Of a DNA stretch of 64,000 nt, positions 14,768 to 53,064 are shown one piece after another. A program made the position numbers and the translations under genes. The stretch's first letter is position 1. Each line of letters opens with the position of its first letter. Source of the stretch: an uncultured Candidatus Saccharibacteria bacterium (GTDB taxonomy: Bacteria; Patescibacteriota; Minisyncoccia; Phycocordibacterales; UBA2100); the NCBI GenBank assembly GCA_964584225.1, contig CAZOZG010000002.1, positions 5,127 through 69,126 on the forward strand, written 5' to 3'. Under the pieces are notes generated by a model, which had not been told where the DNA came from, did no database searches, and was given only the letters and a program-made list of their open reading frames with translations.

Positions 14768-14780
14768 AAATCACCAAAGA

Positions 14781-14818
14781 TCAAGGCGACGCCTTTAGGG
14801 ATCTTAAGGCGTCGCCTT
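14781..14818. promoter_or_regulatory. Intergenic hairpin with a 14-bp perfect stem between the NeuA-like stop and the NeuB-like start.
   Basis: CAAGGCGACGCCTT (14781..14794), loop TAGGGATCTT, AAGGCGTCGCCTTG (14805..14818). On the minus strand it is followed by ATCTTTGGTGATTTTTGA. Confidence 0.5.
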
Positions 14819-14822
14819 GCAT

Positions 14823-15560
14823 TTAGAGTTTCCGCTGTCGCTCGCGCAGCAGCATTTCTGCGAGACGAAAATCGAGTTCAGTATCAATATTGACCGAATG
14901 ATCGAGGGTCATCTCGAAATAGCCGAGGCGTTTCCCTGAAGTCGAGTGTTGTTTCAAAATCGTATCGCGACGCATCACATCCATCGCGCCCGTATGCACG
15001 TAGACTTTCGGAAAAAGTTGCCTCGGCAAATTGTGAGGCTCATCGTGACCCGTCACTTCTTTCGGCAAAAACGGCTCCAGGTGTTTCCCGTCTTTTGCGA
15101 TCCGCCACAGTTTGTACGGATGCTTCGGCGCTTCGTGAATTGGTCGTACCGCGTCGAGCGTCGCATCGTTCAAAAGTGTATCGATGCCGTGATCGATGTC
15201 GTCAGTGGTGCACAAGGGCGACGTCGGCGGCAGTCGCAGGACGACATCGGGTTCGTAGCCCTCTTTTTCTTTTAAAGTCTTGAGCGCGTGCGTGAGAAAT
15301 TCGACGTCGGTCGAACGGTCTTGAGAAATATGTTCTGGCCGCATAAACGGCACTTCGGCTCCAGATTCTTTTGCGACCTTTGCGATCTCTGTATCGTCCG
15401 TAGACACAATCACGCGCGTGACACTCTTCGATCCCTTCGCCGCCTCGATCATCCAGACGATCAAGGGCTTGCCGGCAATCATGCGAACATTTTTCCGCGG
15501 CAGGCCTTTTGAGCCACCGCGGGCTGGAATAACGGCGAGGATTTCCATATATAGCCGCAT
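14823..15560 (-). CDS. Acylneuraminate (CMP-nonulosonate) cytidylyltransferase family, NeuA/KdsB-like.
   Basis: MEILAVIPARGGSKGLPRKNVRMIAGKPLIVWMIEAAKGS matches the CMP-NeuAc synthetase N-terminal motif. An alternative ATG lies at 15548. Confidence 0.7.
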   Translation of the reverse strand: MRLYMEILAVIPARGGSKGLPRKNVRMIAGKPLIVWMIEAAKGSKSVTRVIVSTDDTEIAKVAKESGAEVPFMRPEHISQDRSTDVEFLTHALKTLKEKEGYEPDVVLRLPPTSPLCTTDDIDHGIDTLLNDATLDAVRPIHEAPKHPYKLWRIAKDGKHLEPFLPKEVTGHDEPHNLPRQLFPKVYVHTGAMDVMRRDTILKQHSTSGKRLGYFEMTLDHSVNIDTELDFRLAEMLLRERQRKL

Positions 15561-19405: not shown

Positions 19406-21262
19406 CTATCGCATCCACGCGTCGTACCACAGCTGGAATGTCATTAGGGTCCACAATTTTTTGCGATGATCGCGCGTGCCGGATTCATGCTCGTGCAACA
19501 TACGCTGAATTGGCTCTGGTTTGAAAAAGCCACTGCGGCGCACCGAGTCGGTGGATAGCAATTGATGCGAGAGATCGCGCAATTCTTTCTGCAACCAGCG
19601 ACCAATTGGCACCCCAAAGCCTTGTTTTTTGCGCCACACATTTTCCAACGGCAATTTTTCACTCATGAGCCGCTTCAAAAGGTACTTGCCAGTAAGCCCG
19701 CGATATTTATATGAGTACGGAAGTGCAGAGACAAATTCCACGAGCGTATGATCGAGAAACGGTGCGCGCACTTCCAAGCCGTGCGCCATGCTCGCACGAT
19801 CGACTTTGACCAAAACCTGATCCATGAGGTAGGTGCGCGCGTATGACCATAAAAGGTCGTGATGAAATTGTTCTTTGTCTGCATGGATCGAAAAGAATTG
19901 ATCAAGGTGCGCATACGGTGACCGGCGTGCGGGAGTAATCAAAAGATCATTCGCCTCGCGATCATTGAACGCGCCGAGCCACTGTTGATGCCGATAGCGC
20001 GGATCGGTATCCGCGCCTTCGATAAATTTTTTGAGGACGAAATCTGCACTAAAATAGCCGTGACGGACAGGTAACGCATTGATCACAGGCTCGATGAGCG
20101 AACTGCGCAGGGCACGCGGAATTGCGCGATACCAGCTCACAAATTGTTCTGCACGAAAGGTCGGATAGCCAGCAAACAGTTCGTCGGCGCCGTCGCCGCC
20201 GAGCGCGACCGAGACGTGCTTTTTAGTGAAGGATGACAAAAGGTACGTCGGCAGCACCGACGCGTCGGCGAGTGGTTCATCGATGTAGCGAAACACTTCC
20301 GGAATGAGCTCGACGCAACGCGCGGAAGAAAATTGCTCTGCCGTATGCTCAACCCCGATTGTTTTTGCAGCGATTTTCGCATATGTAAGTTCGTCGAAAT
20401 CTGCATCGTCGAAACCGATCGAGAATGTCTTCACCGGTGCACGCGAGGTCTTTTTTGCGTAGTACGCGACCGTCGAGCTATCGATACCACCTGAGAGGAA
20501 CACTCCTAAGGGGACGTCGCTCATGAGGCGCTTTTCAACAGCGCGCGAGAGATGCCGATCGAGCATCTCTCGCGCGTGTTCAAATGAGATCGAGTGTGAT
20601 TGTCGCGACAACGACCAGTAAATTTCCTCTTGCGGCTCACTCCCCTTTTTCGAAACGACGTAGCCACCTGGCTGTACCTTGCGCACACCTTTGAAAATCG
20701 AATATGGCGTCGGAACGTATTCGTACGTGAGATACATGCGCACGGCATCCGGATCAATTTCTTTTTTGAATGCGGGGTGCTGCATCAACGATTTCAATTC
20801 GGAGCCGAAAATCAAGGTGTCGTCGAATACTCCCCAGTACAGGGGTTTCTTCCCCATGCGATCGCGCACAAGATACACGGTGTCGCCACGATGATCGTAG
20901 AGCGCGAAGGCGAACATGCCCTCGAGCTTTTCAAACGCTTTCGCCCCGTATCGCTCGAAGAGCGCAAGAATCACCTCGGTGTCGGTGTTGCTCGTGAATA
21001 CGTAGCCTTGAATTTCTTTTTTGAGTTCTTGGAAATTATAGATTTCGCCGTTGAAAATGATGGTCGTGTGGCCGCTCGCGCTCGTCATTGGCTGATGACC
21101 TGCTGCTGATAGGTCGATAATCGAAAGACGCGTGTGCGCAAAACCAATATGACCTGCATACCAGATACCTCGATCGTCCGGCCCGCGGCGACCCAATGCA
21201 TTCGTCATTTTATCGAGCGTCGCCGTGTCGCCCTTCCCGTAAAATCCGCCGATGCCGCACAT
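19406..21262 (-). CDS. asnB: Asparagine synthase (glutamine-hydrolysing) family amidotransferase.
   Basis: MCGIGGFYGKGD N-terminal nucleophile, and the SGGIDSS PP-loop. Confidence 0.85.
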   Translation of the reverse strand: MCGIGGFYGKGDTATLDKMTNALGRRGPDDRGIWYAGHIGFAHTRLSIIDLSAAGHQPMTSASGHTTIIFNGEIYNFQELKKEIQGYVFTSNTDTEVILALFERYGAKAFEKLEGMFAFALYDHRGDTVYLVRDRMGKKPLYWGVFDDTLIFGSELKSLMQHPAFKKEIDPDAVRMYLTYEYVPTPYSIFKGVRKVQPGGYVVSKKGSEPQEEIYWSLSRQSHSISFEHAREMLDRHLSRAVEKRLMSDVPLGVFLSGGIDSSTVAYYAKKTSRAPVKTFSIGFDDADFDELTYAKIAAKTIGVEHTAEQFSSARCVELIPEVFRYIDEPLADASVLPTYLLSSFTKKHVSVALGGDGADELFAGYPTFRAEQFVSWYRAIPRALRSSLIEPVINALPVRHGYFSADFVLKKFIEGADTDPRYRHQQWLGAFNDREANDLLITPARRSPYAHLDQFFSIHADKEQFHHDLLWSYARTYLMDQVLVKVDRASMAHGLEVRAPFLDHTLVEFVSALPYSYKYRGLTGKYLLKRLMSEKLPLENVWRKKQGFGVPIGRWLQKELRDLSHQLLSTDSVRRSGFFKPEPIQRMLHEHESGTRDHRKKLWTLMTFQLWYDAWMR

Positions 21263-26799: not shown

Positions 26800-26835
26800 C
26801 TCACGCGGGAAACGCACGACGATGCGACCCGCGAT

Positions 26836-28017
26836 CTACTGCACTTCGCGGACAGGAACAGGAAATACGTATCGGTGCGGCCCGGATAATTTTTTCTTCA
26901 CTTCATCGAAATAGTCATGCACAAACACGACAAACACGTCGGGCTTGTGCTTTTCCAAATACGACATTGGCACGATCGGTATATGCGTTCCGGGAGTATA
27001 TTTATGCTGCTTAATCGGTGTCTCGTCGACAACAAACGAAATGAGGTCGGGTCCGATATTCCCGAAATTACATATTGTGGAGAGGCGCGCCGGTGCAGCA
27101 AAACCCGCGACGAGGAGGCCTTCCGACTTATACCTTTCAAGCGTTGCGCGAAGATCCGCAATTTGTGTGCGAGCTTCCTTCCCGAACGTAAGCACCCGCT
27201 CGGGCGTCAACCTGTTCGATTCATAGGCAAGATGCTGCGCCACGCTTTCACTCGGCGGTGCACCAGTTCCCTTCTTCTCTACGGTCGCTCGTAGCGAGCC
27301 ACCGTGAGAAGAAGTCTCTTCGACGTCGGACAAGTACATGCCATGTCGCTGGAACAGCTTTTCAAGTGATGTCACGGAGAAATACGAGATACGATCAAGG
27401 TAGAATCGCTCGAAGCGCATGTCTTTGAGTACCGTATCTACATACTCGATCTCGAGAATAAATTTCCCGTCTTCGGTGAGTAATTCTTTTACGTCATCGA
27501 TAAACGTGTGTGGATCGCCTAGGTGCGAAAACATGCTGAATCCTATTATCACGTCTGGCCGACCATGTTTCGAGACAATTTCTTTGACCGTTGTGGCATC
27601 AAAGAACGCGGTGATCGTTGTGAGGCCAGCTTCGTTGGCGATTTTAGATACGTTGATGGCTGGCTCGACACCAATTGCCGCAACACCCATTTCTTTCAGC
27701 GGTTTCAGCAGTATGCCATCGTTGGAACCGATATCAACGACAAATTTTGCGCGTGCCAATGTCTTTGCAAAATTCCTATAATGAGTAACAACGCCAGCAT
27801 TCACGGACGAAAGATGGTAGTAATCTTCAAACATTTTCTCTCGAGAAATTGTTGTCCCAATGTGTACGCTTTTACATGTTGGACAAAAGTACATTTTCAA
27901 CGGGTAAAATTCCTCGGTCGCAAATTCTTCTTTTGTCGGATACTTAATCGCAAGTGGTTGCCGGCCCAGATCAAGAAATTCAATGGTGTTTTCTGCGACG
28001 CATAGTCTGCATTGCAT
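26836..28017 (-). CDS. NDP-hexose C-methyltransferase family (TylC3-like: Zn-ribbon N-terminal domain plus C-methyltransferase domain).
   Basis: CRLC...LGRQPLAIKY...FCPTCKSVHIG has the CxxC...CxxC N-terminal layout of the TylC3-type family, followed by a Rossmann methyltransferase core. Confidence 0.55.
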   Translation of the reverse strand: MQCRLCVAENTIEFLDLGRQPLAIKYPTKEEFATEEFYPLKMYFCPTCKSVHIGTTISREKMFEDYYHLSSVNAGVVTHYRNFAKTLARAKFVVDIGSNDGILLKPLKEMGVAAIGVEPAINVSKIANEAGLTTITAFFDATTVKEIVSKHGRPDVIIGFSMFSHLGDPHTFIDDVKELLTEDGKFILEIEYVDTVLKDMRFERFYLDRISYFSVTSLEKLFQRHGMYLSDVEETSSHGGSLRATVEKKGTGAPPSESVAQHLAYESNRLTPERVLTFGKEARTQIADLRATLERYKSEGLLVAGFAAPARLSTICNFGNIGPDLISFVVDETPIKQHKYTPGTHIPIVPMSYLEKHKPDVFVVFVHDYFDEVKKKLSGPHRYVFPVPVREVQ

Positions 28018-28083
28018 ACGATGTGTTCACCACTATACCTTCTTTTGGTACTCGAGGAAATACAGCGCGTCAGAGTCGTGTCT

Positions 28084-29094
28084 TTACAGCCTCACGCGCT
28101 TGCCTGTCCGCGCCGATGTCCGTAAGGCTTCCATGACCTTCGCTTGCTGGAGAATTCTTGATCTCATCGACTTCATCTCTCCTCTATTCGTCTGTGTGAC
28201 GACATCATAGAAGTAGCGAAAACTAAGCGCGAATTGATTGACCGCCGGCACAGCGATCGTTTCGATCATATCTTTCATTCCATCATTTGTAATCAACTCA
28301 ACAAGCGGCACGAACGACGGCGGGATCGCAAACGCGCGGTTCGTGCGCACGATACCCTTCGATCCCCAGATCGAGTAGGTGTTTTGATAGTGATTATTAA
28401 AACCAAACGCCATAAAGGCGCTTCTGCCGCCGGGAAACTCTAATAGCGCGGAGCCGTGAACGTCGACCTCGTGACCGTTTTTGGAAAGAGTGCACATGAC
28501 TGCATGCGGTTCCTCGGCAAAAATTTTTCGGGCCATGAAGGCGGTGTAGCAACCACAGTCATTCAGCGCTCCGCCTCCTAGATCCTTTCGATAGCGGATG
28601 TCTTCTTGCGGGAACGGAGGAAACCCGTACGCCCCTTGCCACACCAGAGGAATTCCGATGGCTCCCTTTCGGAGGAGCGACATTATCCTCGCGTGCTGGG
28701 GATGAAATTCGGGGACGAAATTTTCATAGAGCGCGACGCCATATTTTTCTGATGCGCGGAGCATGCGCTTGGCGGAGGAAAGACTGCCGGTGATAGATTT
28801 CTCTACGATACAGTGCTTCCCCGCCCGCATCGCTTGCGTCACCCATCGTTCCTGCACGCCGACGGGAAGCGGACTATAGATGATGTCAATGCGTTTGCGG
28901 GCGATGAGCGATTCGTACGATTTTATTTCCAGGCTGTGCTTTGCCGCTCACGCGCTTGCTTTTTCCCGTGTACGACTCGCCATCACCACGAGTTCCGCCT
29001 GTTCTATGCTCCTCAAGGCACCGATGCCATACCGCTCGGCAATATTCGCCGTCCCCAGTATTCCCACGCGCAGTTTCCTTACAGGACGGCGCAT
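28084..29094 (-). pseudogene. Gfo/Idh/MocA-family sugar oxidoreductase (candidate NDP-hexose 3-ketoreductase) interrupted by an in-frame TGA at 28950..28948.
   Basis: Manual translation from ATG 29094 gives MRRPVRKLRVGILGTANIAERYGIGALRSIEQAELVVMASRTREKASA*AAKHSLEIKSYESLIARKRIDIIYSPLPVGVQERWVTQAMRAGKHCIVEKS..., all in one frame. The track shows only the GTG-initiated downstream part 28084..28857. Confidence 0.55.
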
Positions 29095-29852
29095 ACGTTA
29101 CGTGCGAGCGAATTCACGACGTTGTCTACGCGTAAGAGCTTCTGAATCTGAAGGCGCGTCAGCCAGATGTAGTCGTCTGTAATCGGCACGTTCTCATGTT
29201 CGTCGACTTCGACAATCATGGTGCGATTGATCTTTCGATAAAACCGTCCGCCATCTTCGACGCCGCTCACGGTCGTGAGGAGACGCCCCTTGCCGCCCTC
29301 TCTGAAATATTCCACGAGCCGGGGATTCTTCCCTCGATGCGCTCGAGAGAGGTTACCTTCTGAGACCTGCAGAGCCGGAGATATCTGGACGCGGTCTACA
29401 TTTCCCGGCTCGAATTTGGCATAAAACAAGTAGTGGGGGACGCCGCCGATTACCTTGCGTATAACGCCCGAAATCCCGACTTCGGTCTGCTTCACCATCG
29501 GTTGCGACCATGAGGGAACTTCCCGGTCAGCGGCTCCGGTAACCTCGACTCCAATAATTGAGAAGAATTTTCCGCTCTCGTGCGCAATGCAGCCGGTTTT
29601 CGGATCGATCTTCCAATGCTGCATGCCCGTAATATTTGTTTCCTCAACGCGCGCCGGATACTCCGTTTGCTTTTTTCTGAGCCATGCGAGTACGCCTTCA
29701 ACGTCTCCGGATTTTTCAGCGAGCGCAAGCTCTTCGACACGCTCTGCCGCAGCGGTGATTGCTCGCGTGACGGTAAAGCCGGCATTTCCCACCAGTTTCG
29801 CAATATGTTCCGCAATGCCCATAGGTATGTACAGATCGGAGGGTGATGTCAC
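29079..29852 (-). CDS. NDP-hexose 2,3-dehydratase family (EvaA/TylX3-like), single-domain form.
   Basis: The C-terminal block DDYIWLTRLQIQKLLRVDNVVNSLARNVCAVL resembles the conserved end of hexose 2,3-dehydratase repeats. At 257 aa it is about half the usual two-repeat length. Confidence 0.45.
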   Translation of the reverse strand: MTSPSDLYIPMGIAEHIAKLVGNAGFTVTRAITAAAERVEELALAEKSGDVEGVLAWLRKKQTEYPARVEETNITGMQHWKIDPKTGCIAHESGKFFSIIGVEVTGAADREVPSWSQPMVKQTEVGISGVIRKVIGGVPHYLFYAKFEPGNVDRVQISPALQVSEGNLSRAHRGKNPRLVEYFREGGKGRLLTTVSGVEDGGRFYRKINRTMIVEVDEHENVPITDDYIWLTRLQIQKLLRVDNVVNSLARNVCAVL

Positions 29853-30578
29853 TCACGCCGCGCGCTTTGCGACTTCATTTGAGACTCGTAAGAGCGCGTC
29901 AAACGTTCCCGCATCAGACCAGCCGCCCCGGACGACTGCAAAGGTGAGTTTCTTCTTTTTGATATAGACGTTGTTGACATCGGTGATTTCCAGCTCGCCC
30001 CGCGCTGACGGTTTCAGTGTTTTGATTATTGAGAAAACGTTGGAGTCAAAGATATAAAATCCTGTCTGCGCAAGTTCCGACCTCGGCTCTTTCGGCTTCT
30101 CTTCGATCGTGAGAATCCGCTTCCCCGAGGTATCAAAGACCGGCACACCGAAACCTATGGGATTGTGCATCTCCTTGAAAAAGACAAGTGCGCCTCCTTT
30201 GAATTTTTTAAGTTCCTTTTTGAAATCCTTTTCGAAAATGTTGTCACCGAGAATGACCGCAACGTTGTCATCCTTCACAAAATCCTCCGCGTATTTCAGT
30301 GCATCGGCAATGCCGCCATTGTTGGTATCTTGGAGTGCATAGGAGAGCTTGACCCCATACTCAGTGCCAGAGCCGAGAAAGTTCATAAAGTGACCTGCGT
30401 GTTCGCGCCCGCAGACAATCATGATATCGCGTACGCCAGATTTTCTGAGTGTCTCCATCGGGTAGATAATCATCGGCTTGTTGTACACCGGCAGGAGATG
30501 CTTATTAGTAATGCGCGTCAGCGGGCTAAGGCGTGTTCCAAGGCCGCCCGCGAGGATCACTCCTTTTGTCTCTCTCAT
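29853..30578 (-). CDS. rmlA: Glucose-1-phosphate thymidylyltransferase (short form).
   Basis: KGVILAGGLGTRLSPLTRITNKHLLPVYNKPMIIYPMETL. The start forms an ATGA overlap with the rmlB stop. Confidence 0.75.
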   Translation of the reverse strand: MRETKGVILAGGLGTRLSPLTRITNKHLLPVYNKPMIIYPMETLRKSGVRDIMIVCGREHAGHFMNFLGSGTEYGVKLSYALQDTNNGGIADALKYAEDFVKDDNVAVILGDNIFEKDFKKELKKFKGGALVFFKEMHNPIGFGVPVFDTSGKRILTIEEKPKEPRSELAQTGFYIFDSNVFSIIKTLKPSARGELEITDVNNVYIKKKKLTFAVVRGGWSDAGTFDALLRVSNEVAKRAA

Positions 30579-31627
30579 ACCTTCGCGGAATGACCTTTCC
30601 ACAAATCGATGTGCGGATTAAAAACGCCTGTCCGCTGCCTGACGTTGTCTATCCAGGTGCGATGTGCGAGATACCACTCGATTGTGCTTTTAAAGGCCTC
30701 AGGAAACGAGTGCGAGGGTTTCCAACCGAGCTCACGCCGTATACGCGTGCTATCGATGGCATAACGACGATCGTGGCCCGGGCGATCCGGCACGTACTCA
30801 ATCCACGACTCATCGCGACCGAAGTGCGCAAGGATCATCGATGCGATGGTGCGATTATCCGTCTCATTGTCTGCACCGATGTTGTAGACCGCACCCGGCT
30901 TTCCCGCCATGAGGCAACGCAGGAGCGCATCACAATGATCTAAGACGTAAATCCAGTCGCGGACATGCTTCCCGTCACCGTACAGGGGCAATCGTTTACC
31001 TTCGAGCATGCGCACGATAAAAAACGGGATGAGTTTTTCCGGATACTGGTTTGGGCCGTAGTTGTTGGAACAATGGGTAACGACGACCGGCACACCCCAC
31101 GTCGCGTGAAATGCGCGACAGAGCAAATCGCCGCCGGCTTTTGTCGCAGCGTATGGCACATTCGGCTGGAACGCAGTACTTTCATGAAAGCGCTCTTTCC
31201 CCGTCAGGGGAAGCGTGCCGTATGTCTCGTCAGTCGAGACCTGCACGAATTTCGATACTCCAGACGCTTTGACTGCCTCGAGGAGGTGGTAGACGCCCTC
31301 GATGTTCGTTTTGATGAATTCGAGTGCGCCGACATGGATCGAGCGATCGACGTGCGTCTCCGCTGCAAAATTAATCACGTAGTGAGGTCGGAAATTCTCA
31401 AACACTCGTGTGACCGCCTCAGCATCCGCGACATCGCCGAGTACAAAGGTATACCGCGGGTCGTTCTCGATAGCAGTCAGATTTTCAAGATTTCCGGAAT
31501 AGGTGAGCCTGTCGAGATTGACGATGCGCACGTCACTGTGCTTACTAAGAATCGAGCAGATGAAATTTGACCCGATGAAGCCGGCGCCACCACACACCAA
31601 TACGGTTTTACCGTTTAGATCCGACAT
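30575..31627 (-). CDS. rmlB: dTDP-glucose 4,6-dehydratase.
   Basis: KTVLVCGGAGFIGSNFI...YAATKAGGDLL (YxxxK), an extended SDR. Confidence 0.85.
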   Translation of the reverse strand: MSDLNGKTVLVCGGAGFIGSNFICSILSKHSDVRIVNLDRLTYSGNLENLTAIENDPRYTFVLGDVADAEAVTRVFENFRPHYVINFAAETHVDRSIHVGALEFIKTNIEGVYHLLEAVKASGVSKFVQVSTDETYGTLPLTGKERFHESTAFQPNVPYAATKAGGDLLCRAFHATWGVPVVVTHCSNNYGPNQYPEKLIPFFIVRMLEGKRLPLYGDGKHVRDWIYVLDHCDALLRCLMAGKPGAVYNIGADNETDNRTIASMILAHFGRDESWIEYVPDRPGHDRRYAIDSTRIRRELGWKPSHSFPEAFKSTIEWYLAHRTWIDNVRQRTGVFNPHIDLWKGHSAKV

Positions 31628-31660: not shown

Positions 31661-32653
31661 CTAGGCAACCGTCTGCTCTCCCATCGAAAGAAGCGATTCT
31701 TCTAATCGACGAAATGTGTCTGCGATGCCTTCCCGTTTCCACGTGTTACGTATGTGGACGGCAAATGGATCACCCTGCCACATATATTCCTCCATCTTGT
31801 CCGCATAAAAATCATAGTAGCCGTTCTCTGCGAAACCCGTTGACGAGAAGTACCCGTTCCGCTTCGGCATCAGTGAGAATCGCTCCGGAAGGCACGCGTC
31901 TATCACTTTATTGATATATCGCCCCTGATCCGCGCTCTTCCAGACGGGTTGCAATAATTCAATGGGCATCTGAGATTCCTTCAGCAGTTGTGCCACGCGA
32001 TAGCCGACATCGCGGGAACTCCCCATGCGCCATCGCTCTTTCATGCTCCACACAGACCGAGCAAAAAAAGAATCACCTCTTGTTTTCTTCACCGGGAACT
32101 CGCCACGCGGATTTGTCGCGCGATGCGTTGCCGTGAAAGGATAGGCGGGGTGAAAATTAAGTTCCATCGCCGGGACGCGTGTTGTGTCGACGAATAAACA
32201 CGTGTGAGTCGGGTAGTATCGTACTTTCTTTGAGTACTGGGGATGCCACGGCGCCCCGAACGCCGCGAGCTCCTGGCGACGCATGTGTGATACAATTTCG
32301 AGCGCCCAATTCGGACGAATGATAAAAAAGTCTGCATCCAAGAACATAATGAACCGGGTTCGGCATTGCGGGAGCAGACTATTGAGGGCAGATGATGCGT
32401 GAAATGGATACACGATGGGCTTCGCATATATCTTTTCGAATTCCGAAATCTCAAAACCTTGAAATATCTCTATGTCTCCGTCGGGAGGAGAGACCTTTTT
32501 CTCGCGCGGTGAGTTGTCGATGACAATCCAGCGAAGCGCGGCGTCTTCGTTGAGCTTTCGCGTGAGTCGCCAATTCATCGACAGTAAGTCGCTCGTCTCT
32601 TTGCGATGATATACCGAACAAATGGTCAGGTCGGGCATAGGAAATGTGTTCAC
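31661..32653 (-). CDS. Divergent GT-A-fold (GT2-like) glycosyltransferase, tentative.
   Basis: LTICSVYHRKE...RWIVIDNSPRE...FIMFLDADFF (DxD-like). Confidence 0.3.
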   Translation of the reverse strand: MNTFPMPDLTICSVYHRKETSDLLSMNWRLTRKLNEDAALRWIVIDNSPREKKVSPPDGDIEIFQGFEISEFEKIYAKPIVYPFHASSALNSLLPQCRTRFIMFLDADFFIIRPNWALEIVSHMRRQELAAFGAPWHPQYSKKVRYYPTHTCLFVDTTRVPAMELNFHPAYPFTATHRATNPRGEFPVKKTRGDSFFARSVWSMKERWRMGSSRDVGYRVAQLLKESQMPIELLQPVWKSADQGRYINKVIDACLPERFSLMPKRNGYFSSTGFAENGYYDFYADKMEEYMWQGDPFAVHIRNTWKREGIADTFRRLEESLLSMGEQTVA

Positions 32654-34020
32654 CGCCAGTGCTTTGGGATCAGCGGCGCGATGTAGGGTAAGCGGCCGGC
32701 GGCTTTGCGAATCAACATCCGTTCGTGCGGATCAAAGTCAAATAGTTCACTTACCGAAAGCGTAAATTCCGGTAGCACACCCTGAAGCCGCAGCGTCCGC
32801 TCGATCATACTCGCGAGTAGAATGAGCGTCGATCCGATACCGATGCCCGGCACGCCCCAGACGTACACCCCGAGCGCGGTCCCAATGACGGTAAATATAA
32901 TCTTCCACACCGTCGACCAAAAAAAGGCATACTGCGATTTGAGCGCGGCGAATGCGGGCGCGTAGACTGCCACGACCGCCGCCGGGAAAATACTCCACAT
33001 GAGTCCGAGCATGATCGGTACTGCCGGGCCGTACTTGGGGAAAATCAGTATCAAAATTGGCAAACCGACAAAGGTGGCCACGAGGAGCGGCACACACAGG
33101 ATGAGTTGCGCTTTCACCGCACTTTTCACATAGCGGATAAATTCGGTCGATTGATCGACATAGCGAGGCAGAAGAGGCGCAAGGACGCTGCCGAGCGGCA
33201 AAAAGGCGGTCACCTGACTATAAATCCCTTCAGCAAACGAAAAGAGGCCGACAGCTTCTGTGCCAAGAAAAAAACGGATAATCCAAATCTGAACCGTCGA
33301 GGCGAGCGTCCCCAGGTACGAATTGGCGACGCCCCACTTGCGATGATCTTGGAGCATGCGCCAAAACGCGTGCGGATCTTCGGCGTGCGAGCGACCGAAC
33401 ACGCGATACGCCGAAAGAGAGCGCGGCAAATACAAAAGCACGGTTACAAATTGTGAAATCACGATCGCATACAAAAGACCGTAGACGCCCATATCAAATG
33501 CGAAAAAGAGAAAACACAGCGCGACAAATTTTACGAACTCTTCGAGATTGGTGTAGAGCGCCTGGTCAAAATAGCGCAGCTCAATCGTGGCGAGCATAGT
33601 CGAAACGACGCGAAACGGCGTCACGAGAAGACTGAATGACGAAATCTTAATGAGCGTGCCAATCGCAGGGTTGCCCGCGAGCGCTGCGGCTCTGTCGGCA
33701 AAGAAAAAGAGTGCCGCCCATGCGACGATGCCCAGAAGCATATTGAGCGAGAGAAACTGCAAAAAAAGTGCTTTCATTTTTCCGAATTCGCCGCGAGTGC
33801 GCTCTGCGCCCATGTCCGCGATGATGACCGAATTGAGTCCAGGCAAAAGAAAAATGCTGATCGTGGAAATGACCGAAAGCACGAGTTGCGAGAGGCCGTA
33901 GTCGTAGACAGTCAGCGTCCGGAGGATGATGAAGACGTTGGCGAAGATGACGACTTTGGCGACGATAGTGCTCACGGTATTCCACGCGACACCGCGCCCC
34001 ACTGTGTTGACGATGCTCAT
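32650..34020 (-). CDS. Wzx-type polysaccharide flippase (MOP superfamily).
   Basis: About 12 TM helices. The start is set at the internal ATG, which forms an ATGA overlap with the GT4 stop at 34017. Confidence 0.6.
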   Translation of the reverse strand: MSIVNTVGRGVAWNTVSTIVAKVVIFANVFIILRTLTVYDYGLSQLVLSVISTISIFLLPGLNSVIIADMGAERTRGEFGKMKALFLQFLSLNMLLGIVAWAALFFFADRAAALAGNPAIGTLIKISSFSLLVTPFRVVSTMLATIELRYFDQALYTNLEEFVKFVALCFLFFAFDMGVYGLLYAIVISQFVTVLLYLPRSLSAYRVFGRSHAEDPHAFWRMLQDHRKWGVANSYLGTLASTVQIWIIRFFLGTEAVGLFSFAEGIYSQVTAFLPLGSVLAPLLPRYVDQSTEFIRYVKSAVKAQLILCVPLLVATFVGLPILILIFPKYGPAVPIMLGLMWSIFPAAVVAVYAPAFAALKSQYAFFWSTVWKIIFTVIGTALGVYVWGVPGIGIGSTLILLASMIERTLRLQGVLPEFTLSVSELFDFDPHERMLIRKAAGRLPYIAPLIPKHWR

Positions 34021-35171
34021 ACAGTTCGCTTGATAGTAGCAAGAATACGTGCGACCCGGGCGTCCCACGTGTATTTTTGCGAAAGCTCGCGCGCGCGCTT
34101 CGCGCGCGCGCTTTTCTCTGGACTCGTCAGTGCCTCCTCGATCCCACGCGCAAGTGCCGTCGGATCATCCGGTCGCACCAAAAAAGCAGATCGCTCATCG
34201 AGTACCTCGCGGACACTGGGTAAATCAGACGCCACGATCGGAATCCCAGAGGTCATGTATGAAAACAATTTCAGCGGCGACGTGTAACGCGCTGAAATAT
34301 CGAATCGACCGGAGTTAGGCAGAATAAGCACATCGGCGGCTGCTTGATTGTCAGCGAGCTCATGGTACGGTCGAATTCCGAAAAACTGCACGCGTGGATT
34401 CTTTGGCGCGAGCTTCGCGATTTGTTCTGGCTGGCCGCCGATGATTCCAACGACCACGTCTTCTGGCAAAAGTGTTACTGCACGCAATAGGACGTCGGTC
34501 CCCTTCCAGGCATCGATACGGCCGATATAGAGCGCGACATGTTTGTCGAGCGGCAGATTGAGCCGCGCGCGAGCCTTCGCGCGCGGCTCGGGATTGGCGA
34601 ACTCATTCAAATCCACCGCATCTGAAGCGACCGTTATTTTGTCAGCAGTGACACCCAGATGAACCAAATCATCCTTTAAACCCTGTGTGATCGCAACGAT
34701 TGTCGTTGCATGTGCGAGCGCTCGGAGAAGCAGTCGGTGCCAGCGCGGAATGTCATGCATCTCGATCACGACTCGATTTCTTTTAGGCGAACACAGAAAA
34801 AGCAGCGGATAATCGCGGCAGTAGATGATGTCGCCTGGTTTCGACACTTTAGAAAAAAACAAACTCACTACAAAAGAGAACACGTCGAATAGAAAAAGAA
34901 CGTACGGGAAAAATCGAGTCCGACTCCCCAGGTCAGGCATCGCGACTCGGCGAATACTAAATGTCGGTCGGATTTTGTAATAGTCAAAAGGATCTTGCCC
35001 CGCAAAGTTGCGCTTCCCCGGCACGACGAGCTCGACCGAAAGCCCTGCATTCGCAAATGCCGCGCACATATGCATTATCTGAAGCCCGTGCGCGCGGCCT
35101 GTCGGAATGCGCGCGGCAGAGATATACACGAGGCGTTTGGATGAGTTAGCGGTGTCTCCCATAGTCATCAT
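34017..35171 (-). CDS. GT4 (GT-B) glycosyltransferase.
   Basis: HVALYIGRIDAWKGTDVLLRAV...ILPNSGRFDISARYTSPLKLFSYMTSGIPIVASD. The start is ambiguous (35162, 35171 or 35207). Confidence 0.7.
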   Translation of the reverse strand: MMTMGDTANSSKRLVYISAARIPTGRAHGLQIMHMCAAFANAGLSVELVVPGKRNFAGQDPFDYYKIRPTFSIRRVAMPDLGSRTRFFPYVLFLFDVFSFVVSLFFSKVSKPGDIIYCRDYPLLFLCSPKRNRVVIEMHDIPRWHRLLLRALAHATTIVAITQGLKDDLVHLGVTADKITVASDAVDLNEFANPEPRAKARARLNLPLDKHVALYIGRIDAWKGTDVLLRAVTLLPEDVVVGIIGGQPEQIAKLAPKNPRVQFFGIRPYHELADNQAAADVLILPNSGRFDISARYTSPLKLFSYMTSGIPIVASDLPSVREVLDERSAFLVRPDDPTALARGIEEALTSPEKSARAKRARELSQKYTWDARVARILATIKRTV

Positions 35172-35952
35172 CGAGCCGGACAATGTCGCGCTCGTCAAAA
35201 TCGCCATACGCGACCTCCACGATGATTCCCCCGCGCTTCGATGCGAGCCGATGCACCTGCTTTTTCTTCACACGAAACACCTCGCCTTTTTTGAGCGCTA
35301 CGGTACGCTCCCCCGAAGCCGCGTGGACAACGGCCGATGCATCGCCCTGCAGCAGGAGCCACCACTCTTCGCGGCGACGGTGATACTGTAAACTCAATCG
35401 CTTCCCAGGCTTGACGTAGATGGTCTTGAGGTTCCAGCCTTTGCCGCTGTCCCAGCCGTAGTATTCGCCCCACGGTCGCAACGTGCGCGAGGCGGGCTTG
35501 CGTGCTGCATGTATCATCCACGACGACGATTGCACCTTGCCTCCTGTCCCGACGTTGAACGCCATCTTGATGCCGTACTTTTTGCACACGGCCGCCTCCG
35601 CAATGTCACGCGTGTTCTTTCGATCGCCACCATTGGCAAAGACTGCAGGCTTGAGGCGCGCGAGCGCGCGGCCAACACCGAGATTTTTCCCGCCCGGCCT
35701 GTCGTCGGTCACGACAACTGCGTCGACGAACGAAAAAGCACCGATCAATTCCGCGCGCTCGCGCGCCGACATGAAGACAAACCCCTTTTTATCCTTGAGC
35801 CAATTGTCGTTGTTCAAAATGACGACCAGCCGATCGCCGAGCGTACGGGCCGCTTGAAACATGCGTACGTGTCCGATATGCAAGGGGTCAAAGCCCCCTG
35901 AGACAGCGACAACCATGGGGCGGTGTTTTCGTGTTCGCTTCAGTGTTGGCAT
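35146..35952 (-). CDS. Sugar-phosphate nucleotidyltransferase (RfaE-domain-II/HxGH cytidylyltransferase-like) fused to a C-terminal cupin.
   Basis: MVVAVSGGFDPLHIGHVRMF...FANGGDR, then the cupin WGEYYGWDSGKGWNLKTIYVKPGKRLSLQYHRRREEWWLLLQGDASAV. Confidence 0.5.
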   Translation of the reverse strand: MPTLKRTRKHRPMVVAVSGGFDPLHIGHVRMFQAARTLGDRLVVILNNDNWLKDKKGFVFMSARERAELIGAFSFVDAVVVTDDRPGGKNLGVGRALARLKPAVFANGGDRKNTRDIAEAAVCKKYGIKMAFNVGTGGKVQSSSWMIHAARKPASRTLRPWGEYYGWDSGKGWNLKTIYVKPGKRLSLQYHRRREEWWLLLQGDASAVVHAASGERTVALKKGEVFRVKKKQVHRLASKRGGIIVEVAYGDFDERDIVRLDDDYGRHR

Positions 35953-35953
35953 G

Positions 35954-36979
35954 CTAATTGAGCATTCGCATTGCCGTTTCGACGTCAGCGCGCACCATCA
36001 TGGCCACGAGCTTCTTAAAAGGGACCGTGGGCTCCCAGCCGAGTTTGCGACACGCTTTGGAATAATCGCCCCGGAGCGCGTGCACTTCCGCGGGGCGATA
36101 AAACTCTTTTGACACGCGGACGATGATTCGATTGCCTTTTGTGACGCCGACCTCCTTCAGTCCGCTGCCTTTCCAAGTGAGCGCAATACCAAGCTCTTCG
36201 CACGCAGCTTCGACAAATTCGCGCACTGAATGGCTTTCGTTGGTCGCTATAACGTAATCGTCGGCTTTCCTTTGCTGCAGCATCAAATGCATCGCGCGAA
36301 CGTAATCTCCCGCAAAGCCCCAGTCGCGGCGCGCATCCAGATTTCCAAGCGCAAAGCTCTCCTGAAGACCGAGCGCGACCTTGGCCAAAGAAACGGTTAT
36401 TTTGCGTGTAACGAAATGCTCCCCGCGGCGCGGCGATTCATGATTGAAAAGAATGCCGGAGGTAATGTGAACGCCTAAGCGTTCGCGATAGCCGACAACA
36501 AAATCCTGATGCGCTTTGAGCTTTGCCTCAGCGTACGGAGAGACAGGCTGGAAGGGAGAGTGTTCGTCTTGTGGCGGCTTTGTCTTCCCGAACATCTCAC
36601 TTGTCGATGCCTGATAGATGCGGACTTTGGGATTGATTTTTATCGCTTCATTGACGAGGCGCCCGACGCCGTAGTAGTTGATTTCCATTGTCTCTTCGGG
36701 GCATTTGAATGAAATGCCGACGTCTGAAAGTGCGGCAAGGTTGTAAATCTCATCCGGCCTCGCCTCTTTCAAGACGCGCGCGAGCGACGCGCCATCGCGT
36801 AGATTACCGTACCGCATTTGTATTGAGCGATCATCGGCGAGTTTGTGAATGCGCATCAAAGGATCAAGGCTCGTCCGACGCATGAGACCCCACACTTCGT
36901 AGCCCTTGCCGACCAAATACTCGGCAAGATAAGAGCCATCCTGGCCGGTAACGCCTGTGATGAGCGCGCGTTTTTTCAT
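35954..36979 (-). CDS. gmd: GDP-mannose 4,6-dehydratase.
   Basis: MKKRALITGVTGQDGSYLAEYLVGKGYEVWGLMRRTS...YAEAKLKAH. Confidence 0.85.
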   Translation of the reverse strand: MKKRALITGVTGQDGSYLAEYLVGKGYEVWGLMRRTSLDPLMRIHKLADDRSIQMRYGNLRDGASLARVLKEARPDEIYNLAALSDVGISFKCPEETMEINYYGVGRLVNEAIKINPKVRIYQASTSEMFGKTKPPQDEHSPFQPVSPYAEAKLKAHQDFVVGYRERLGVHITSGILFNHESPRRGEHFVTRKITVSLAKVALGLQESFALGNLDARRDWGFAGDYVRAMHLMLQQRKADDYVIATNESHSVREFVEAACEELGIALTWKGSGLKEVGVTKGNRIIVRVSKEFYRPAEVHALRGDYSKACRKLGWEPTVPFKKLVAMMVRADVETAMRMLN

Positions 36980-37058
36980 ATCGACCCACTATACCCTCTC
37001 GCGTGCGTTTCGAAAAGAGCCTGTATTTGAGCGCTTATACATGCTATGCTAGCCCGTC

Positions 37059-38321
37059 ATGGCAAGAATTATTGAACGAACAACCTGCCGAATATCGGGA
37101 GAAACGCTGAAACCGCTTTTTTCGCTCGGCGACATCTACATTTCTGACTTTTTGCCCACAGAGGCGAAGCCGCGCAGCCCGAAAGTGCCGCTCGAGCTGA
37201 TGCTCGCGCCGAAATCCGGCCTCGTGCAGCTCAAACACACCGCGCCCTCAGAGGACATGTACAAAGTCTACTGGTATCGCTCCGGCACCAACGAATCGAT
37301 GGTGGCGGAATTGAAAGACATCGCGGAGTCGGTGTCGCGCCACATGCGCCTCGGAAAAGGCAGCATCTGGATTGATGTCGGCTGTAACGACGGCACGCTC
37401 CTTTCGTTTCTTTCAAAAGACATCACCCGCATCGGCTACGATCCGAACGACTACAAGAAGTTTTCGTCTCCGCACGCAGACCTCATCGTGAACGATTATT
37501 TCAATGCGAAGGCGTTTCGCGCCTCGAAATACGGAAAGAAAAAAGCGAAGGTCATCACGTCGATCGCAATGTTCTACGATCTCGAGGATCCGCACGCGTT
37601 TGCGAAGGATGTATACGACATTTTGGATGCTGACGGTATGTGGGTCATTCAAATGAGCTATTTGCCGCTCATGCTCACACAACTCGCGTTTGATAATATC
37701 TGTCACGAACATCTCGAATACTACAGTTTGACTGCGCTGAAGTATCTTTTGGACCAACACCGTTTTAAAATCGTCGACTGTCAGCTCAACGACATCAACG
37801 GCGGCAGTTTTCGCATCCATATCCAAAAGAAATCAGCGGCGGCAGATTCCTTCGCGACTGCCCCGTATCGAGACGTCGCGGCCTATCGAGTCGATGCATT
37901 GCTCGAATATGAAAAAAAACTTCGGCTCAACGACCCGAAGACATACAAAGATTTTTATAAACGCTGCCTTAAGTTGCGAGAGCAAACACTACGTTTTTTA
38001 AAAGCAGAAAAAAAGAAAGGTAAGAAAATCTGGGCATACGGCGCCTCGACCAAAGGCAATACGCTCTTGCAGTGGTGGGGCATCGACAGCTCTCTCGTCG
38101 ATGGCATCGCTGAGCGCTCCGAAGCGAAATTCGGACTGAAGACAGTCGGTTCGAACATTCCAATTTCTTCCGAAGCGAAGATGCGAAAGGCAAAACCCGA
38201 TTATCTCTTGGTGCTCCCATGGCATTTCATCGAGTCATTTGTCCGCCGTGAACAAGAATTTCTGAAACGTGGCGGGAGATTCATTGTCCCCTGCCCCCAC
38301 TTTGAGGTCATCCCTGGCTAG
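37059..38321 (+). CDS. C-methyltransferase-family protein (TylC3-like fold; N-terminal Zn site degenerate).
   Basis: TTCRISGETLKPLFSLGDIYISDF...SIWIDVGCNDGTLLSF...MFYDLEDPHAFAKDVYDILDADGMWVIQMSYL. Confidence 0.45.
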   Translation: MARIIERTTCRISGETLKPLFSLGDIYISDFLPTEAKPRSPKVPLELMLAPKSGLVQLKHTAPSEDMYKVYWYRSGTNESMVAELKDIAESVSRHMRLGKGSIWIDVGCNDGTLLSFLSKDITRIGYDPNDYKKFSSPHADLIVNDYFNAKAFRASKYGKKKAKVITSIAMFYDLEDPHAFAKDVYDILDADGMWVIQMSYLPLMLTQLAFDNICHEHLEYYSLTALKYLLDQHRFKIVDCQLNDINGGSFRIHIQKKSAAADSFATAPYRDVAAYRVDALLEYEKKLRLNDPKTYKDFYKRCLKLREQTLRFLKAEKKKGKKIWAYGASTKGNTLLQWWGIDSSLVDGIAERSEAKFGLKTVGSNIPISSEAKMRKAKPDYLLVLPWHFIESFVRREQEFLKRGGRFIVPCPHFEVIPG

Positions 38322-39527: not shown

Positions 39528-41300
39528 ATGTGCGGGATTTTCGGCATCAATGAAAAGAATGAACCACTCGTCGACGCAGCGGCTGCGTGCATTCGTCACC
39601 GCGGGCCAGATTCCTACGGCAAATGGATTGGGGAGTCTTTTTCTTTTGGTTTCGACCGACTCGCGATTATCGATCTCGATCAACGCGCCAATCAGCCGAT
39701 GTGGGACGATGCGCGCGAGCTCGCCGTTGTTTTCAACGGGGAAATCTATAATTTCAAAGAGCTGAAGAGTGAACTCGAAAAAGAATTTCAGTTTCGTACG
39801 ACCTCTGATACAGAAGTCTTGCTCTACGGGTATAAAAAATACGGACCAGCATTCGCCGAGCGATTACGTGGCATGTTTGCTTATGCGATCTACGACTCGA
39901 AGAAAAATCGTGTGGTGCTGTTTCGCGATCACGCTGGCATCAAACCCCTCCTCTACTATTTCAAAGACGGCATCTTTCTCTTCGGTTCTGAGATGAAAGC
40001 AGTTATGCGTGCGCTTTCACAAAAACAGATCGCGCCGACGCTCGATCGCGATGCAATTCAAAGTTACTTCGGGCTTGGCTATATTCTTTCTCCGGCGACG
40101 ATGTACAAACACGTTCGCAAAGTGCCTCGTGGCTCGTATCTCGAATTCGATATTGCGAAGAAGCAAATTGTTGCCGTAGAACATTTTAAAAGTCCCGGGG
40201 CGAAGGCGAAAAGTGATGACGAGCTTTTCACGATTATCGAACAAAGCATTCTTGATCACCTGATCGCAGATGTGCCCGTCGGTCTCTTTTTCTCAGGGGG
40301 AACGGATTCATCGCTTATTGCATCGATCTTGCACGCGCACAAGGTGGACCTTGAGACATTCAGTATCGGAGTCGAGGGACGAGACACCGACCGAAAATAC
40401 TTTTCCGAAATAAGCGAAACGCTCGGCATCAAGGCGCACGCGTTCGATTTCACACCCGCGGAATTCAACGCGGTCTACGAACCCGTCATGAACAAAGTGG
40501 ATGAACCATGCGCCGATATTTCGATTTTTCCCACGTACTTTGTCTCTCAAAAAGCCGCGGAACGGGTGAAAGTGGTGCTTTCTGGCGAAGGCGGTGACGA
40601 ACTTTTCTTTGGATACGCGCGGCAGCGCGCGCTCGCGCGCCTCCGCGGCGCGCGCTGCCGCGCTTCCCTCACACTTGTCGAACAACTTTTCTTGCGCACA
40701 CCAACCTTTAAAGGCAAAAACTTCGTTTTCGAGAAGATCTTTACGCTCCTACGACAGCCCGTGAGCGCGTACCTCCTCTTCATGTCACCGTCGCGTGACC
40801 TTACCAATCCTGCTGCGTGGGCTGCTGCAAAAAAATCTCTCGTAGAGCAGGCGAATGAACCACTCTACTTCGACCGCGATCTGTATCTTGAAAATGATTT
40901 ATTGCGTAAGACCGACTTCGCGACATCACTAAACTCAATCGAAGGCCGCGTTCCCCTTCTCGACCCACGTATCATCGCAGCCGCACCGGCGTTTGCCAGT
41001 GAATACAAACCATCGGCACCGTCGAAACCAGTGCTGAAACGGCTTCTCGCTCGTTTTTTGCCGAAAGAATTGGTGTACCGCCCAAAAAGTGGTTTTGGGA
41101 TTCCGCTGCTGCGAATGCTGCCTCATTCAGAGGCTTTGCGACGTGATCTCGATTTGGCAATTGCTTACCTGCAAAAAGAGAGGCTCTTGTATGCAACATT
41201 GCCACGCACACGTGAAGAACTGGTGGCTCGGTATCCGAATCTGTGTTTCGCGATGATCAGTCTTTACCGTGCGCTCACGAACAACGCATCACAAGCCTGA
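39528..41300 (+). CDS. asnB: Asparagine synthase-family amidotransferase, second paralog.
   Basis: MCGIFGINEK, SGGTDSS. Confidence 0.8.
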   Translation: MCGIFGINEKNEPLVDAAAACIRHRGPDSYGKWIGESFSFGFDRLAIIDLDQRANQPMWDDARELAVVFNGEIYNFKELKSELEKEFQFRTTSDTEVLLYGYKKYGPAFAERLRGMFAYAIYDSKKNRVVLFRDHAGIKPLLYYFKDGIFLFGSEMKAVMRALSQKQIAPTLDRDAIQSYFGLGYILSPATMYKHVRKVPRGSYLEFDIAKKQIVAVEHFKSPGAKAKSDDELFTIIEQSILDHLIADVPVGLFFSGGTDSSLIASILHAHKVDLETFSIGVEGRDTDRKYFSEISETLGIKAHAFDFTPAEFNAVYEPVMNKVDEPCADISIFPTYFVSQKAAERVKVVLSGEGGDELFFGYARQRALARLRGARCRASLTLVEQLFLRTPTFKGKNFVFEKIFTLLRQPVSAYLLFMSPSRDLTNPAAWAAAKKSLVEQANEPLYFDRDLYLENDLLRKTDFATSLNSIEGRVPLLDPRIIAAAPAFASEYKPSAPSKPVLKRLLARFLPKELVYRPKSGFGIPLLRMLPHSEALRRDLDLAIAYLQKERLLYATLPRTREELVARYPNLCFAMISLYRALTNNASQA

Positions 41301-52194: not shown

Positions 52195-53064
52195 TCACTG
52201 CTCTTGGGCTTTCAGCGAGTCGATATACTGCTTGACGGTCATTTGCGTTTTCCAGCCAAACTCCTTCTCGGCGCGAGATGTGTCGACGATCGAATCCATG
52301 CGATTACCTGGCCTCTCTGGAAGCATTTCGATGTTGTCGGTAAACATCTTTGCAATATCGAGAATCGAATATGATTCGGGCGCGCCAAGTCCGTAATCGT
52401 CGCCCTGCCCCTGTTCCCCGACCATCATCAGCCCACGCGCGAGATCATCGACGTGGGTGAAGTTTCGCTTTTGCGTCCCCGGCGCACGCACGGTGATCGG
52501 TTTCCCTTCTTTATAGAGCGTCTTGAAAATTCCCATAACGCTGCCGTACTTCGGGTCGGTGCTCTCGCGCGCGCCGTAGGCATTGTAGAAATACGTGACG
52601 GCGTATGGGAGCTGGAACCAATTGCCGTAATTCCGGGCAAGCTCCGTATTCGACGCCTTCATCCACGCATATGGCGATTGATCGCGGCCCATGCCGCCGT
52701 CGGCGAATTTCGTGGAGGAGCCCGCATAGACCAATTTGCAGCCGCGCGCACGCCAGTATTCGAAAACTTTGTGCGTGCCCAAGACGTTGCTCTCCCACAC
52801 GAGCGGGAGATCACTGAAGCTCTGCTCGACACGCGAGTATTCGCCGAGGTGAAAAATGATCTTTGGTTTTTCTTTGCCCAAGAGTTCTTCGATGTCTTTG
52901 GTGTGCCCTTCGACGTATTCTGCAACAGTGACATGATTTTCCTTTTTACCGATGAAGTAATTGTCGAGCGAGACGACGCGATATTTCGGCAGCAACATCT
53001 CAATGAGGCGAGAGCCGATCATGCCCGCCCCGCCCGTGACGATCACGGTTTCTTTTCCAGCCAT
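52195..53064 (-). CDS. Extended-SDR NAD-dependent epimerase/dehydratase, UDP-glucuronate decarboxylase (UXS)-like.
   Basis: VIVTGGAGMIGSRL...SLDNYFIGKKENH resembles the VDNFFTGRK motif of UXS. YxxxK is present (YAWMK). Confidence 0.55.
   Translation of the reverse strand: MAGKETVIVTGGAGMIGSRLIEMLLPKYRVVSLDNYFIGKKENHVTVAEYVEGHTKDIEELLGKEKPKIIFHLGEYSRVEQSFSDLPLVWESNVLGTHKVFEYWRARGCKLVYAGSSTKFADGGMGRDQSPYAWMKASNTELARNYGNWFQLPYAVTYFYNAYGARESTDPKYGSVMGIFKTLYKEGKPITVRAPGTQKRNFTHVDDLARGLMMVGEQGQGDDYGLGAPESYSILDIAKMFTDNIEMLPERPGNRMDSIVDTSRAEKEFGWKTQMTVKQYIDSLKAQEQ

Follow-up and report, generated by a model that had tools for sequence, protein, structure and literature searches.

To our knowledge, work on sugar 2,3-dehydratases has been limited to two-domain enzymes of antibiotic producers, with EvaA as the sole structural model. 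The occurrence of a half-length homolog in a surface-glycan region of an uncultured Candidatus Saccharibacteria bacterium, a member of the candidate phyla radiation (CPR), raises the question of which sugar is made there and where it goes. The gene lies on contig CAZOZG010000002.1, in the 64-kb stretch analyzed here (the window; G+C content 52%). Five genes of its minus strand run in one direction from 31627 to 26836 and encode, in this order, RmlB, RmlA, the dehydratase, a reductase and a C-methyltransferase. All positions follow the numbering of the window. We consider it probable that the five genes constitute a CPR operon for an activated 2,6-dideoxyhexose, probably C-methyl-branched, which is destined for a Wzx-dependent surface glycan. 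A preliminary description of this DNA had proposed a toolkit for 2-deoxygenation and C-methylation within a surface-glycan island, which would mean that a structural glycan contains a 2-deoxysugar, probably C-branched, and this proposal is supported at the level of sequence. The literature search found no description of one-domain 2,3-dehydratases, or of this toolkit in CPR bacteria, DPANN archaea or surface glycans. Databases already label the one-domain proteins as "NDP-hexose 2,3-dehydratase family"; family membership is not new, and the novelty lies in the one-domain architecture, in how widely it occurs and in the glycan setting.

Operon and predicted pathway

The first gene (30575..31627, minus strand) encodes the dTDP-glucose 4,6-dehydratase RmlB of 350 amino acids (aa), which scored 431 bits on TIGR01181 against a cutoff of 365 and matched PF16363/PF01370. 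It is followed by a short RmlA-type glucose-1-phosphate nucleotidylyltransferase (241 aa, 29853..30578, minus strand; PF00483, E 9e-59), which reached 239 bits on TIGR01207, under the cutoff of 360. The RmlA orthologues in two related loci, L005 and L006, are 241-242 aa long, and the RmlB orthologues there are 84% identical and hold the same operon position. The two genes had been described as ATGA-coupled. Direct reading confirmed the overlap, in which the RmlB stop and the RmlA ATG share ATGA at 30578-30575, and gave the order as RmlB followed by RmlA. The third gene (29079..29822, minus strand) encodes a single-domain EvaA-type NDP-hexose 2,3-dehydratase of 247 aa, with one copy of the PF03559 domain (205 bits, E 1e-60; gathering score 25). 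It is succeeded by an interrupted gene of 328 codons for a KijD10-type NDP-sugar 3-ketoreductase of the Gfo/Idh/MocA family (28084..29067, minus strand; PF22725, PF02894 and PF01408) and, after a gap of 66 nucleotides (nt), by the gene for a sugar C-methyltransferase of a Y-L-D-R subfamily (393 aa, 26836..28017, minus strand; PF08421, PF13489 and PF08484). The five genes were all recognized by HMM matches that exceed chance by far.

The same five-gene order was found in L005 and L006, where the reductase is intact (332 and 336 aa) and the operon stands behind GT4, Wzx and GT2-like genes. The dehydratases of L005, L006 and a further locus, L007, were 82%, 79% and 80% identical to that of the window. 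A survey of one genome per GTDB species retrieved 64 species-level loci. In 43 of the 64 loci, among them all 19 CPR loci, a same-strand KijD10-like Gfo/Idh/MocA gene was located within 1.5 kb downstream of the dehydratase gene, and RmlA and RmlB were present in 49 and 43 of the 64, respectively. As a pair, dehydratase and reductase form a module that is conserved in CPR bacteria, in DPANN archaea and in a number of further lineages. A C-methyltransferase was encoded in all 19 CPR loci and in 3 of the 19 archaeal loci. Among the CPR loci, 16 of 19 carried an RmlD-like short-chain dehydrogenase/reductase (SDR) and none of the 19 carried RmlC. The canonical Parcubacteria operon (L071) is translationally coupled and comprises RmlB, RmlA, an RmlD-like SDR (285 aa), a C-methyltransferase (409 aa), the dehydratase (212 aa) and the reductase (331 aa); these six genes would cover all steps to a D-configured 2,6-dideoxy-3-C-methylhexose. 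The cassette of one archaeon adjoins a full RmlABCD set and the oligosaccharyltransferase STT3/AglB. Most Woesearchaeota loci are devoid of the methyltransferase, and their predicted product is therefore an unbranched 2,6-dideoxyhexose.

Based on these assignments, a pathway can be proposed. RmlA and RmlB would supply dTDP-4-keto-6-deoxy-D-glucose; their families are assigned, and the short RmlA is presumed to have the matching nucleotide specificity. The 247-aa EvaA homolog would then remove the 2-hydroxyl group to give a 3,4-diketo-2,6-dideoxy sugar, presumably as a homodimer that mimics the two-domain pseudo-dimer of EvaA. By orthology, the KijD10-type enzyme would reduce C3 with NAD(P)H, and the Y-L-D-R methyltransferase would methylate the 4-keto intermediate via an enolate, most likely at C3, although this regiochemistry is uncertain. 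A further 4-ketoreductase would finish the sugar, for which a D-configured product is expected with no 5-epimerase present. The adjacent GT2-like, GT4 and Wzx genes would use it.

The routes to mycarose, D-configured in mithramycin and L-configured in the Tyl/Ery pathways, proceed through 4,6-dehydration, 2,3-dehydration, 3-ketoreduction, C3-methylation and 4-ketoreduction, and the window operon would follow the same step logic as both. Several differences were noted. The L-mycarose pathway has an RmlC/TylK-type 5-epimerase, which the window lacks, and an L-sugar is accordingly not expected. The RmlD-like SDR of the canonical CPR operon, which would fit a D-mycarose-like product, is likewise missing from the window operon. 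Moreover, the mycarose pathways feed an aglycone, whereas the predicted destination of the window sugar is a Wzx-dependent glycan. The first steps of mycarose-type routes are described in the literature (PMC8987622).

Several observations weigh against the proposed pathway. Searching with RmlC by tblastn gave no match to a 5-epimerase in the 64-kb window at E 1e-3, and no RmlD-type 4-ketoreductase was detected in the operon or the window. The preliminary label "mycarose-type" was over-specific in this respect. The sole candidate for a 4-ketoreductase, a spare SDR of the window (53064..52195), is generic, GalE-like and 21 kb away. The AlphaFold (AF2) model of the dehydratase is of moderate confidence, with a predicted local distance difference test (pLDDT) score of 77, and the literature search yielded no biochemical data for any one-domain PF03559 protein. 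In the methyltransferase, the motif FERFYLDR places Asp-Arg where TcaB9 has E224-H225, and elsewhere the Y-L-D-R subfamily is coupled to an SDR of 352-360 aa, with an additional Gfo/Idh/MocA protein of 287/288 aa in L073 and L074. Finally, the reading frame of the reductase is broken by a TGA at codon 40 (28950-28948), a stop that had been overlooked earlier and that lies between the GxGxxA Rossmann motif and the EK motif further downstream.

The C-methyltransferase and the interrupted 3-ketoreductase

The C-methyltransferase contains a PF08421 zinc ribbon, a PF13489 S-adenosylmethionine-binding domain and a PF08484 C-terminal domain, all above cutoffs. Its solved relatives TcaB9 (216 bits), KijD1 (215 bits) and MtmC (194 bits) are all sugar C3-methyltransferases of the TylC3 family and share this three-domain architecture with a four-cysteine zinc ribbon. 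The enzyme is 34% identical to TcaB9; its four zinc-ribbon cysteines (CxxC...CxxC) align with those of TcaB9, and the equivalents of TcaB9 Y76, H181 and Y222 are kept. The earlier assignment as a TylC3-type C-methyltransferase therefore stands with regard to the fold and the relatives, which are not O- or N-methyltransferases, but it has to be narrowed to a separate subfamily carrying Y-L-D-R in place of Y-x-E-H. The corresponding stretch reads FDQIYDEHF in TcaB9 and FDTIYHEHL in MtmC, whereas YLDR or YFDR was present in 119 of the 119 top homologues of the window enzyme. Members of this Y-[LF]-D-R subfamily are 393 aa long and remain ~57% identical across Acidobacteria, Alphaproteobacteria and CPR. 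In contrast, the methyltransferase of the canonical CPR and archaeal cassette has 409 aa, an MtmC-like FDT[IV]YHEHL motif and only ~33% identity to that of the window. The histidine of TcaB9 at this site, His225, is the residue altered in PDB entry 4E2Z; Bruender and Holden are said to have proposed it in 2012 as the catalytic base.

The different usual partners of the Y-L-D-R subfamily imply that its native substrate may differ. The enzyme might act on another carbon, such as C5, or on another nucleotide sugar, and not on C3 of the dideoxy intermediate; the operon would then yield a 2,6-dideoxyhexose without a branch, like most DPANN loci. The exchanged motif, the ~57% identity of the subfamily across phyla together with its customary pairing with an SDR and a short Gfo/Idh/MocA gene, and the scarcity of any C-methyltransferase in the archaeal loci would be consistent with this explanation. 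Nevertheless, we regard it as rather unlikely. The methyltransferase gene begins closely behind the reductase gene, and it directly follows that gene in the window, L005 and L006, so that its position is kept in three related genomes. In L007, a standard C-methyltransferase precedes the dehydratase within the operon, which fits a like-for-like replacement, and the solved relatives of the window enzyme all act at C3. We read the Y-L-D-R enzyme of the window lineage as a putative non-orthologous replacement of the standard C-methyltransferase, and C-methylation of the 4-keto-2,6-dideoxy intermediate as its most likely, though predicted, job.

The Y-L-D-R methyltransferase and the SDR constitute a conserved module of their own at L071 (2502-4790), L073 (9001-12178) and L074 (9001-12177), which come from Parcubacteria, a Xanthobacteraceae metagenome-assembled genome (MAG) and a 1.58-Mb contig. 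It looks like an uncharacterized branched-sugar pathway.

The reductase of the window is 75% identical over its full length to the intact L005 orthologue. The latter scored 198 bits against KijD10 (3RBV, "Sugar 3-ketoreductase") and 99 bits against the next solved protein, which bears out the earlier assignment to the 3-ketoreductases of the Gfo/Idh/MocA family. KijD10, the C3-ketoreductase of the L-digitoxose pathway, has this fold and the lysine of the EK(P/S) motif in common with the window enzyme, where VEKS aligns with AEKP (Lys102) of KijD10; a catalytic role has been reported for this lysine (PMC11167396). The two differ in the in-frame TGA of the window copy. At the position of the stop (28948..28950), Phe is found in L005 and L006 (TTC and TTT), in KijD10 and in L072, an independent Logan contig from run SRR12313478. 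L072 and the window were identical at 2110 of 2120 aligned positions, and all 10 mismatches were located in a 90-nt patch of the reductase gene (28892..28981). At the non-synonymous sites of this patch L072 carries I, P, R, F, E and D, which are the family consensus, and the window carries M, R, S, the stop, K and R.

If the TGA is real, the window strain would be unable to perform the 3-ketoreduction step. The pathway would then be dead in this genome: with the reductase as a true pseudogene no 2-deoxy sugar would be made, and at most an unstable diketo intermediate would accumulate or flux would be directed elsewhere. This is suggested by the stop itself, by the five further non-consensus residues in the same patch and by the status of TGA as a genuine stop in the window genome. 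We still think it unlikely, although a little less so than the remaining alternatives below. The other 2030 nt shared by the window and L072 are identical, and the remaining genes of the operon are intact; ten changes packed into 90 nt are unlike neutral decay, and an intact allele exists in the near-identical genome. Since L072 reads Phe at this site, the TGA is not a lineage trait; it is a strain-level lesion or a consensus/assembly artefact.

Other explanations of the stop and of the patch were considered. An alternative code in which TGA is read as Gly or Trp, known from certain CPR lineages, was dismissed because both RmlB and RmlA end at TGA in the window sequence and other open reading frames are full length under table 11. 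A frameshift was rejected as the cause of the short reductase frame, as the upstream 70 codons lie in the same frame and are parted from the rest by one TGA. For gene conversion from a paralogue, the window contained no donor, its only repeat being a 13-nt match inside the same gene. The substitutions were not adenine-specific, unlike those expected from a diversity-generating retroelement.

The one-domain 2,3-dehydratase family

Among solved structures, EvaA (4J7G) was the sole match to the dehydratase of the window (E 2e-68), with 145 bits to its N-terminal domain and 86 bits to its C-terminal domain. The mechanically called open reading frame starts at a GTG and has 257 aa, whereas homologues favour an ATG that gives 247 aa; the 257-aa version retrieved L072, and no exact-sequence record was found for the 247-aa protein. 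Residues E138 and E189 correspond to E139 and E190 of EvaA, mutation of which abolishes its activity (PMC8987622). Their equivalents were invariant in all 21 aligned sequences and in each of 35 single-domain proteins from diverse taxa. With the PF03559 match and both catalytic glutamates kept, the earlier assignment as an EvaA/TylX3-type homolog is well founded. The closest named relatives are from Parcubacteria, Kaiserbacteria, Paceibacterota and Patescibacteria MAGs, and the window was placed in a CPR bacterium of Parcubacteria-like, probably Kaiserbacteria-like, type.

The protein is not a truncated enzyme, because the one-domain homologues (210-257 aa) all share a conserved NSLARNVCAxL C-terminus and the dehydratase was one-domain in 64 of 64 loci (174-270 aa), each found as a single high-scoring segment pair. 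EvaA, TylX3, OleV, KijB1 and SpnO likewise belong to PF03559, with the Nudix-like fold and the glutamates of EvaA pocket A, and EvaA-type enzymes share the genomic partners RmlA, RmlB and 3-ketoreductase with the one-domain form. However, EvaA-type enzymes consist of two tandem domains (410-500 aa) and occur in antibiotic clusters, whereas the one-domain form (210-260 aa) is without the vestigial pocket-B domain and sits in surface-glycan loci of CPR, DPANN and other lineages. EvaA is a dimer in which each subunit has two Nudix-like domains; the two domains cooperate, the second pocket being a remnant (PMC8987622). Lacking the pocket-B domain, the one-domain form would need a homodimer to attain an EvaA-like architecture.

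Carriers of the one-domain form among CPR were Kaiserbacteria, Parcubacteria, Paceibacterota and a divergent Uhrbacteria group, and those among DPANN archaea were Woese-, Nano- and Aenigmarchaeota. Others included Nitrosopumilus, Cloacimonadota, cultured Microbacterium, SAR86 and Bdellovibrionales. In a representative library of 1.84 billion proteins, 1466 members matched the PF03559 family at E<=1e-3, and the canonical two-domain form (410-500 aa) made up ~145 of the best 150 of these 1466 representatives. The one-domain form is an overall minority, yet a coherent and widespread clade. The half length, previously called atypical, is therefore not so for this lineage, in which it defines a large family, but the description holds for PF03559 as a whole. 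A neighbor-joining tree was built from 35 single domains, 29 N-domains and 29 C-domains; without a usable outgroup, its root was not placed. The main single-domain clade was sister to the N-domains and not nested within them, with weak bootstrap support of 20-48%, and the Uhrbacteria-type proteins formed a separate deep branch.

It could also be argued that one-domain PF03559 proteins are not 2,3-dehydratases but Nudix-fold proteins that bind or hydrolyze sugar nucleotides in another role. In favor of this, Nudix hydrolases come next after EvaA, the best match, among the PDB matches of the AF2 model, and in EvaA the two domains cooperate (PMC8987622). Against this stand the invariance of both catalytic glutamates, the 33-41% identity of the one-domain family to the active N-domains of two-domain enzymes and the tight coupling to a KijD10-type 3-ketoreductase, the sole known substrate class of which is the product of a 2,3-dehydratase. 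We hold such a non-dehydratase role to be improbable, and a 2,3-dehydratase is the favored assignment.

A duplication ancestor was reportedly inferred by Kubiak, Thoden and Holden from the vestigial second pocket of EvaA. It is tentatively proposed, as a possible but doubtful extension, that the one-domain proteins are survivors or close analogues of this pre-duplication ancestor, acting as symmetric homodimers with two live sites, and that CPR, DPANN, Nitrosopumilus, Cloacimonadota and Microbacterium routinely put 2,6-dideoxy sugars on their surfaces, which in CPR would be 3-C-methylated and D-mycarose-like. If this is true, 2,6-dideoxy sugars (3-C-methyl in CPR), a class regarded as restricted to secondary metabolites, would occur on cell surfaces. 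The large and conserved one-domain family makes the duplication-relic idea for the inactive pocket of EvaA directly testable, and the one-domain dehydratase offers a minimal scaffold for deoxysugar engineering. As the dehydratase-reductase pair is present in cultured Microbacterium strains, the prediction can be checked experimentally.

One homologue from outside the window, P0184 (351 aa), is a one-domain dehydratase split by an insert of ~100 aa, which on visual inspection looks like a GIY-YIG nuclease domain. The insert may be a mobile insertion.

The surrounding glycan island

Upstream of the operon and co-directional with it are three genes whose positions are kept in L005 and L006. The nearest, weakly GT2-like gene (330 aa, 31661..32653, minus strand; PF00535, E 5e-4, below cutoff) is a candidate transferase for the sugar. 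It is preceded by genes for a Wzx-type polysaccharide flippase (472 aa, 32650..34068, minus strand; PF13440 and PF01943) and a GT4 glycosyltransferase (396 aa, 34017..35207, minus strand; PF13692 and PF00534). They belong to a glycan island that spans roughly 8.7-50.9 kb of the window and contains several transferases of the GT2, GT4 and PMT_2 types, a GtrA-fused GT2 and an O-antigen-ligase-like protein, together with a NeuB and cytidylyltransferase pair, asparagine-synthase paralogues and methyltransferases. This content agrees with the surface-glycan setting proposed in the preliminary description. Although this combination of enzymes is familiar mainly from macrolide and aureolic-acid biosynthesis (PMC8987622; PMC8341913), an affiliation with a secondary-metabolite cluster for a glycosylated antibiotic is extremely improbable, given the Wzx, GT2, GT4, PMT_2, O-antigen-ligase-like and NeuB neighbors, the absence of polyketide, non-ribosomal-peptide or aglycone genes from the window neighborhood, and the archaeal version next to STT3/AglB. 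The location of such operons beside flippases, glycosyltransferases and archaeal AglB implies an unusual, hydrolytically labile 2-deoxy sugar, C-methyl-branched in CPR, on episymbiotic ultrasmall cells. Surface chemistry is central to host attachment in such cells.

A terminator-like hairpin just 3' of the methyltransferase stop (26801..26819, minus strand), detected by a consensus scan only, may mark the end of the operon. The spare GalE-like SDR adjoins a TrwB/VirD4-like type-IV coupling ATPase (53105-54934).

Other parts of the island pointed to further sugars. A 515-aa protein in which a NeuB-family synthase carries a C-terminal cupin adjoins a CMP-sugar-type cytidylyltransferase (13220-15560), and the two suggest that this CPR genome encodes a nonulosonic-acid pathway. 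Two glutamine-hydrolysing asparagine-synthase paralogues (19406-21262 and 39528-41300), also found in L005 and L006, may amidate a sugar or glycan. A GDP-mannose 4,6-dehydratase (36979..35954; TIGR01472, 409 bits, slightly under the cutoff of 415) forms a divergent pair with a second C-methyltransferase (37059..38321, 420 aa), whose best solved match was MtmC (158 bits) and whose motif is C-H-E-H; the pair was also present in L006. It adjoins a 268-aa fusion of a cytidylyltransferase-like domain with a mannose-6-P-isomerase-type cupin, and the region as a whole (35146-38321) is a putative second C-methyl-sugar route. Within the GT4 coding region, near the start of Wzx, a perfect 10-bp all-G/C hairpin (CGCGCGCGCG-CTT-CGCGCGCGCG) was located at 34088-34111.

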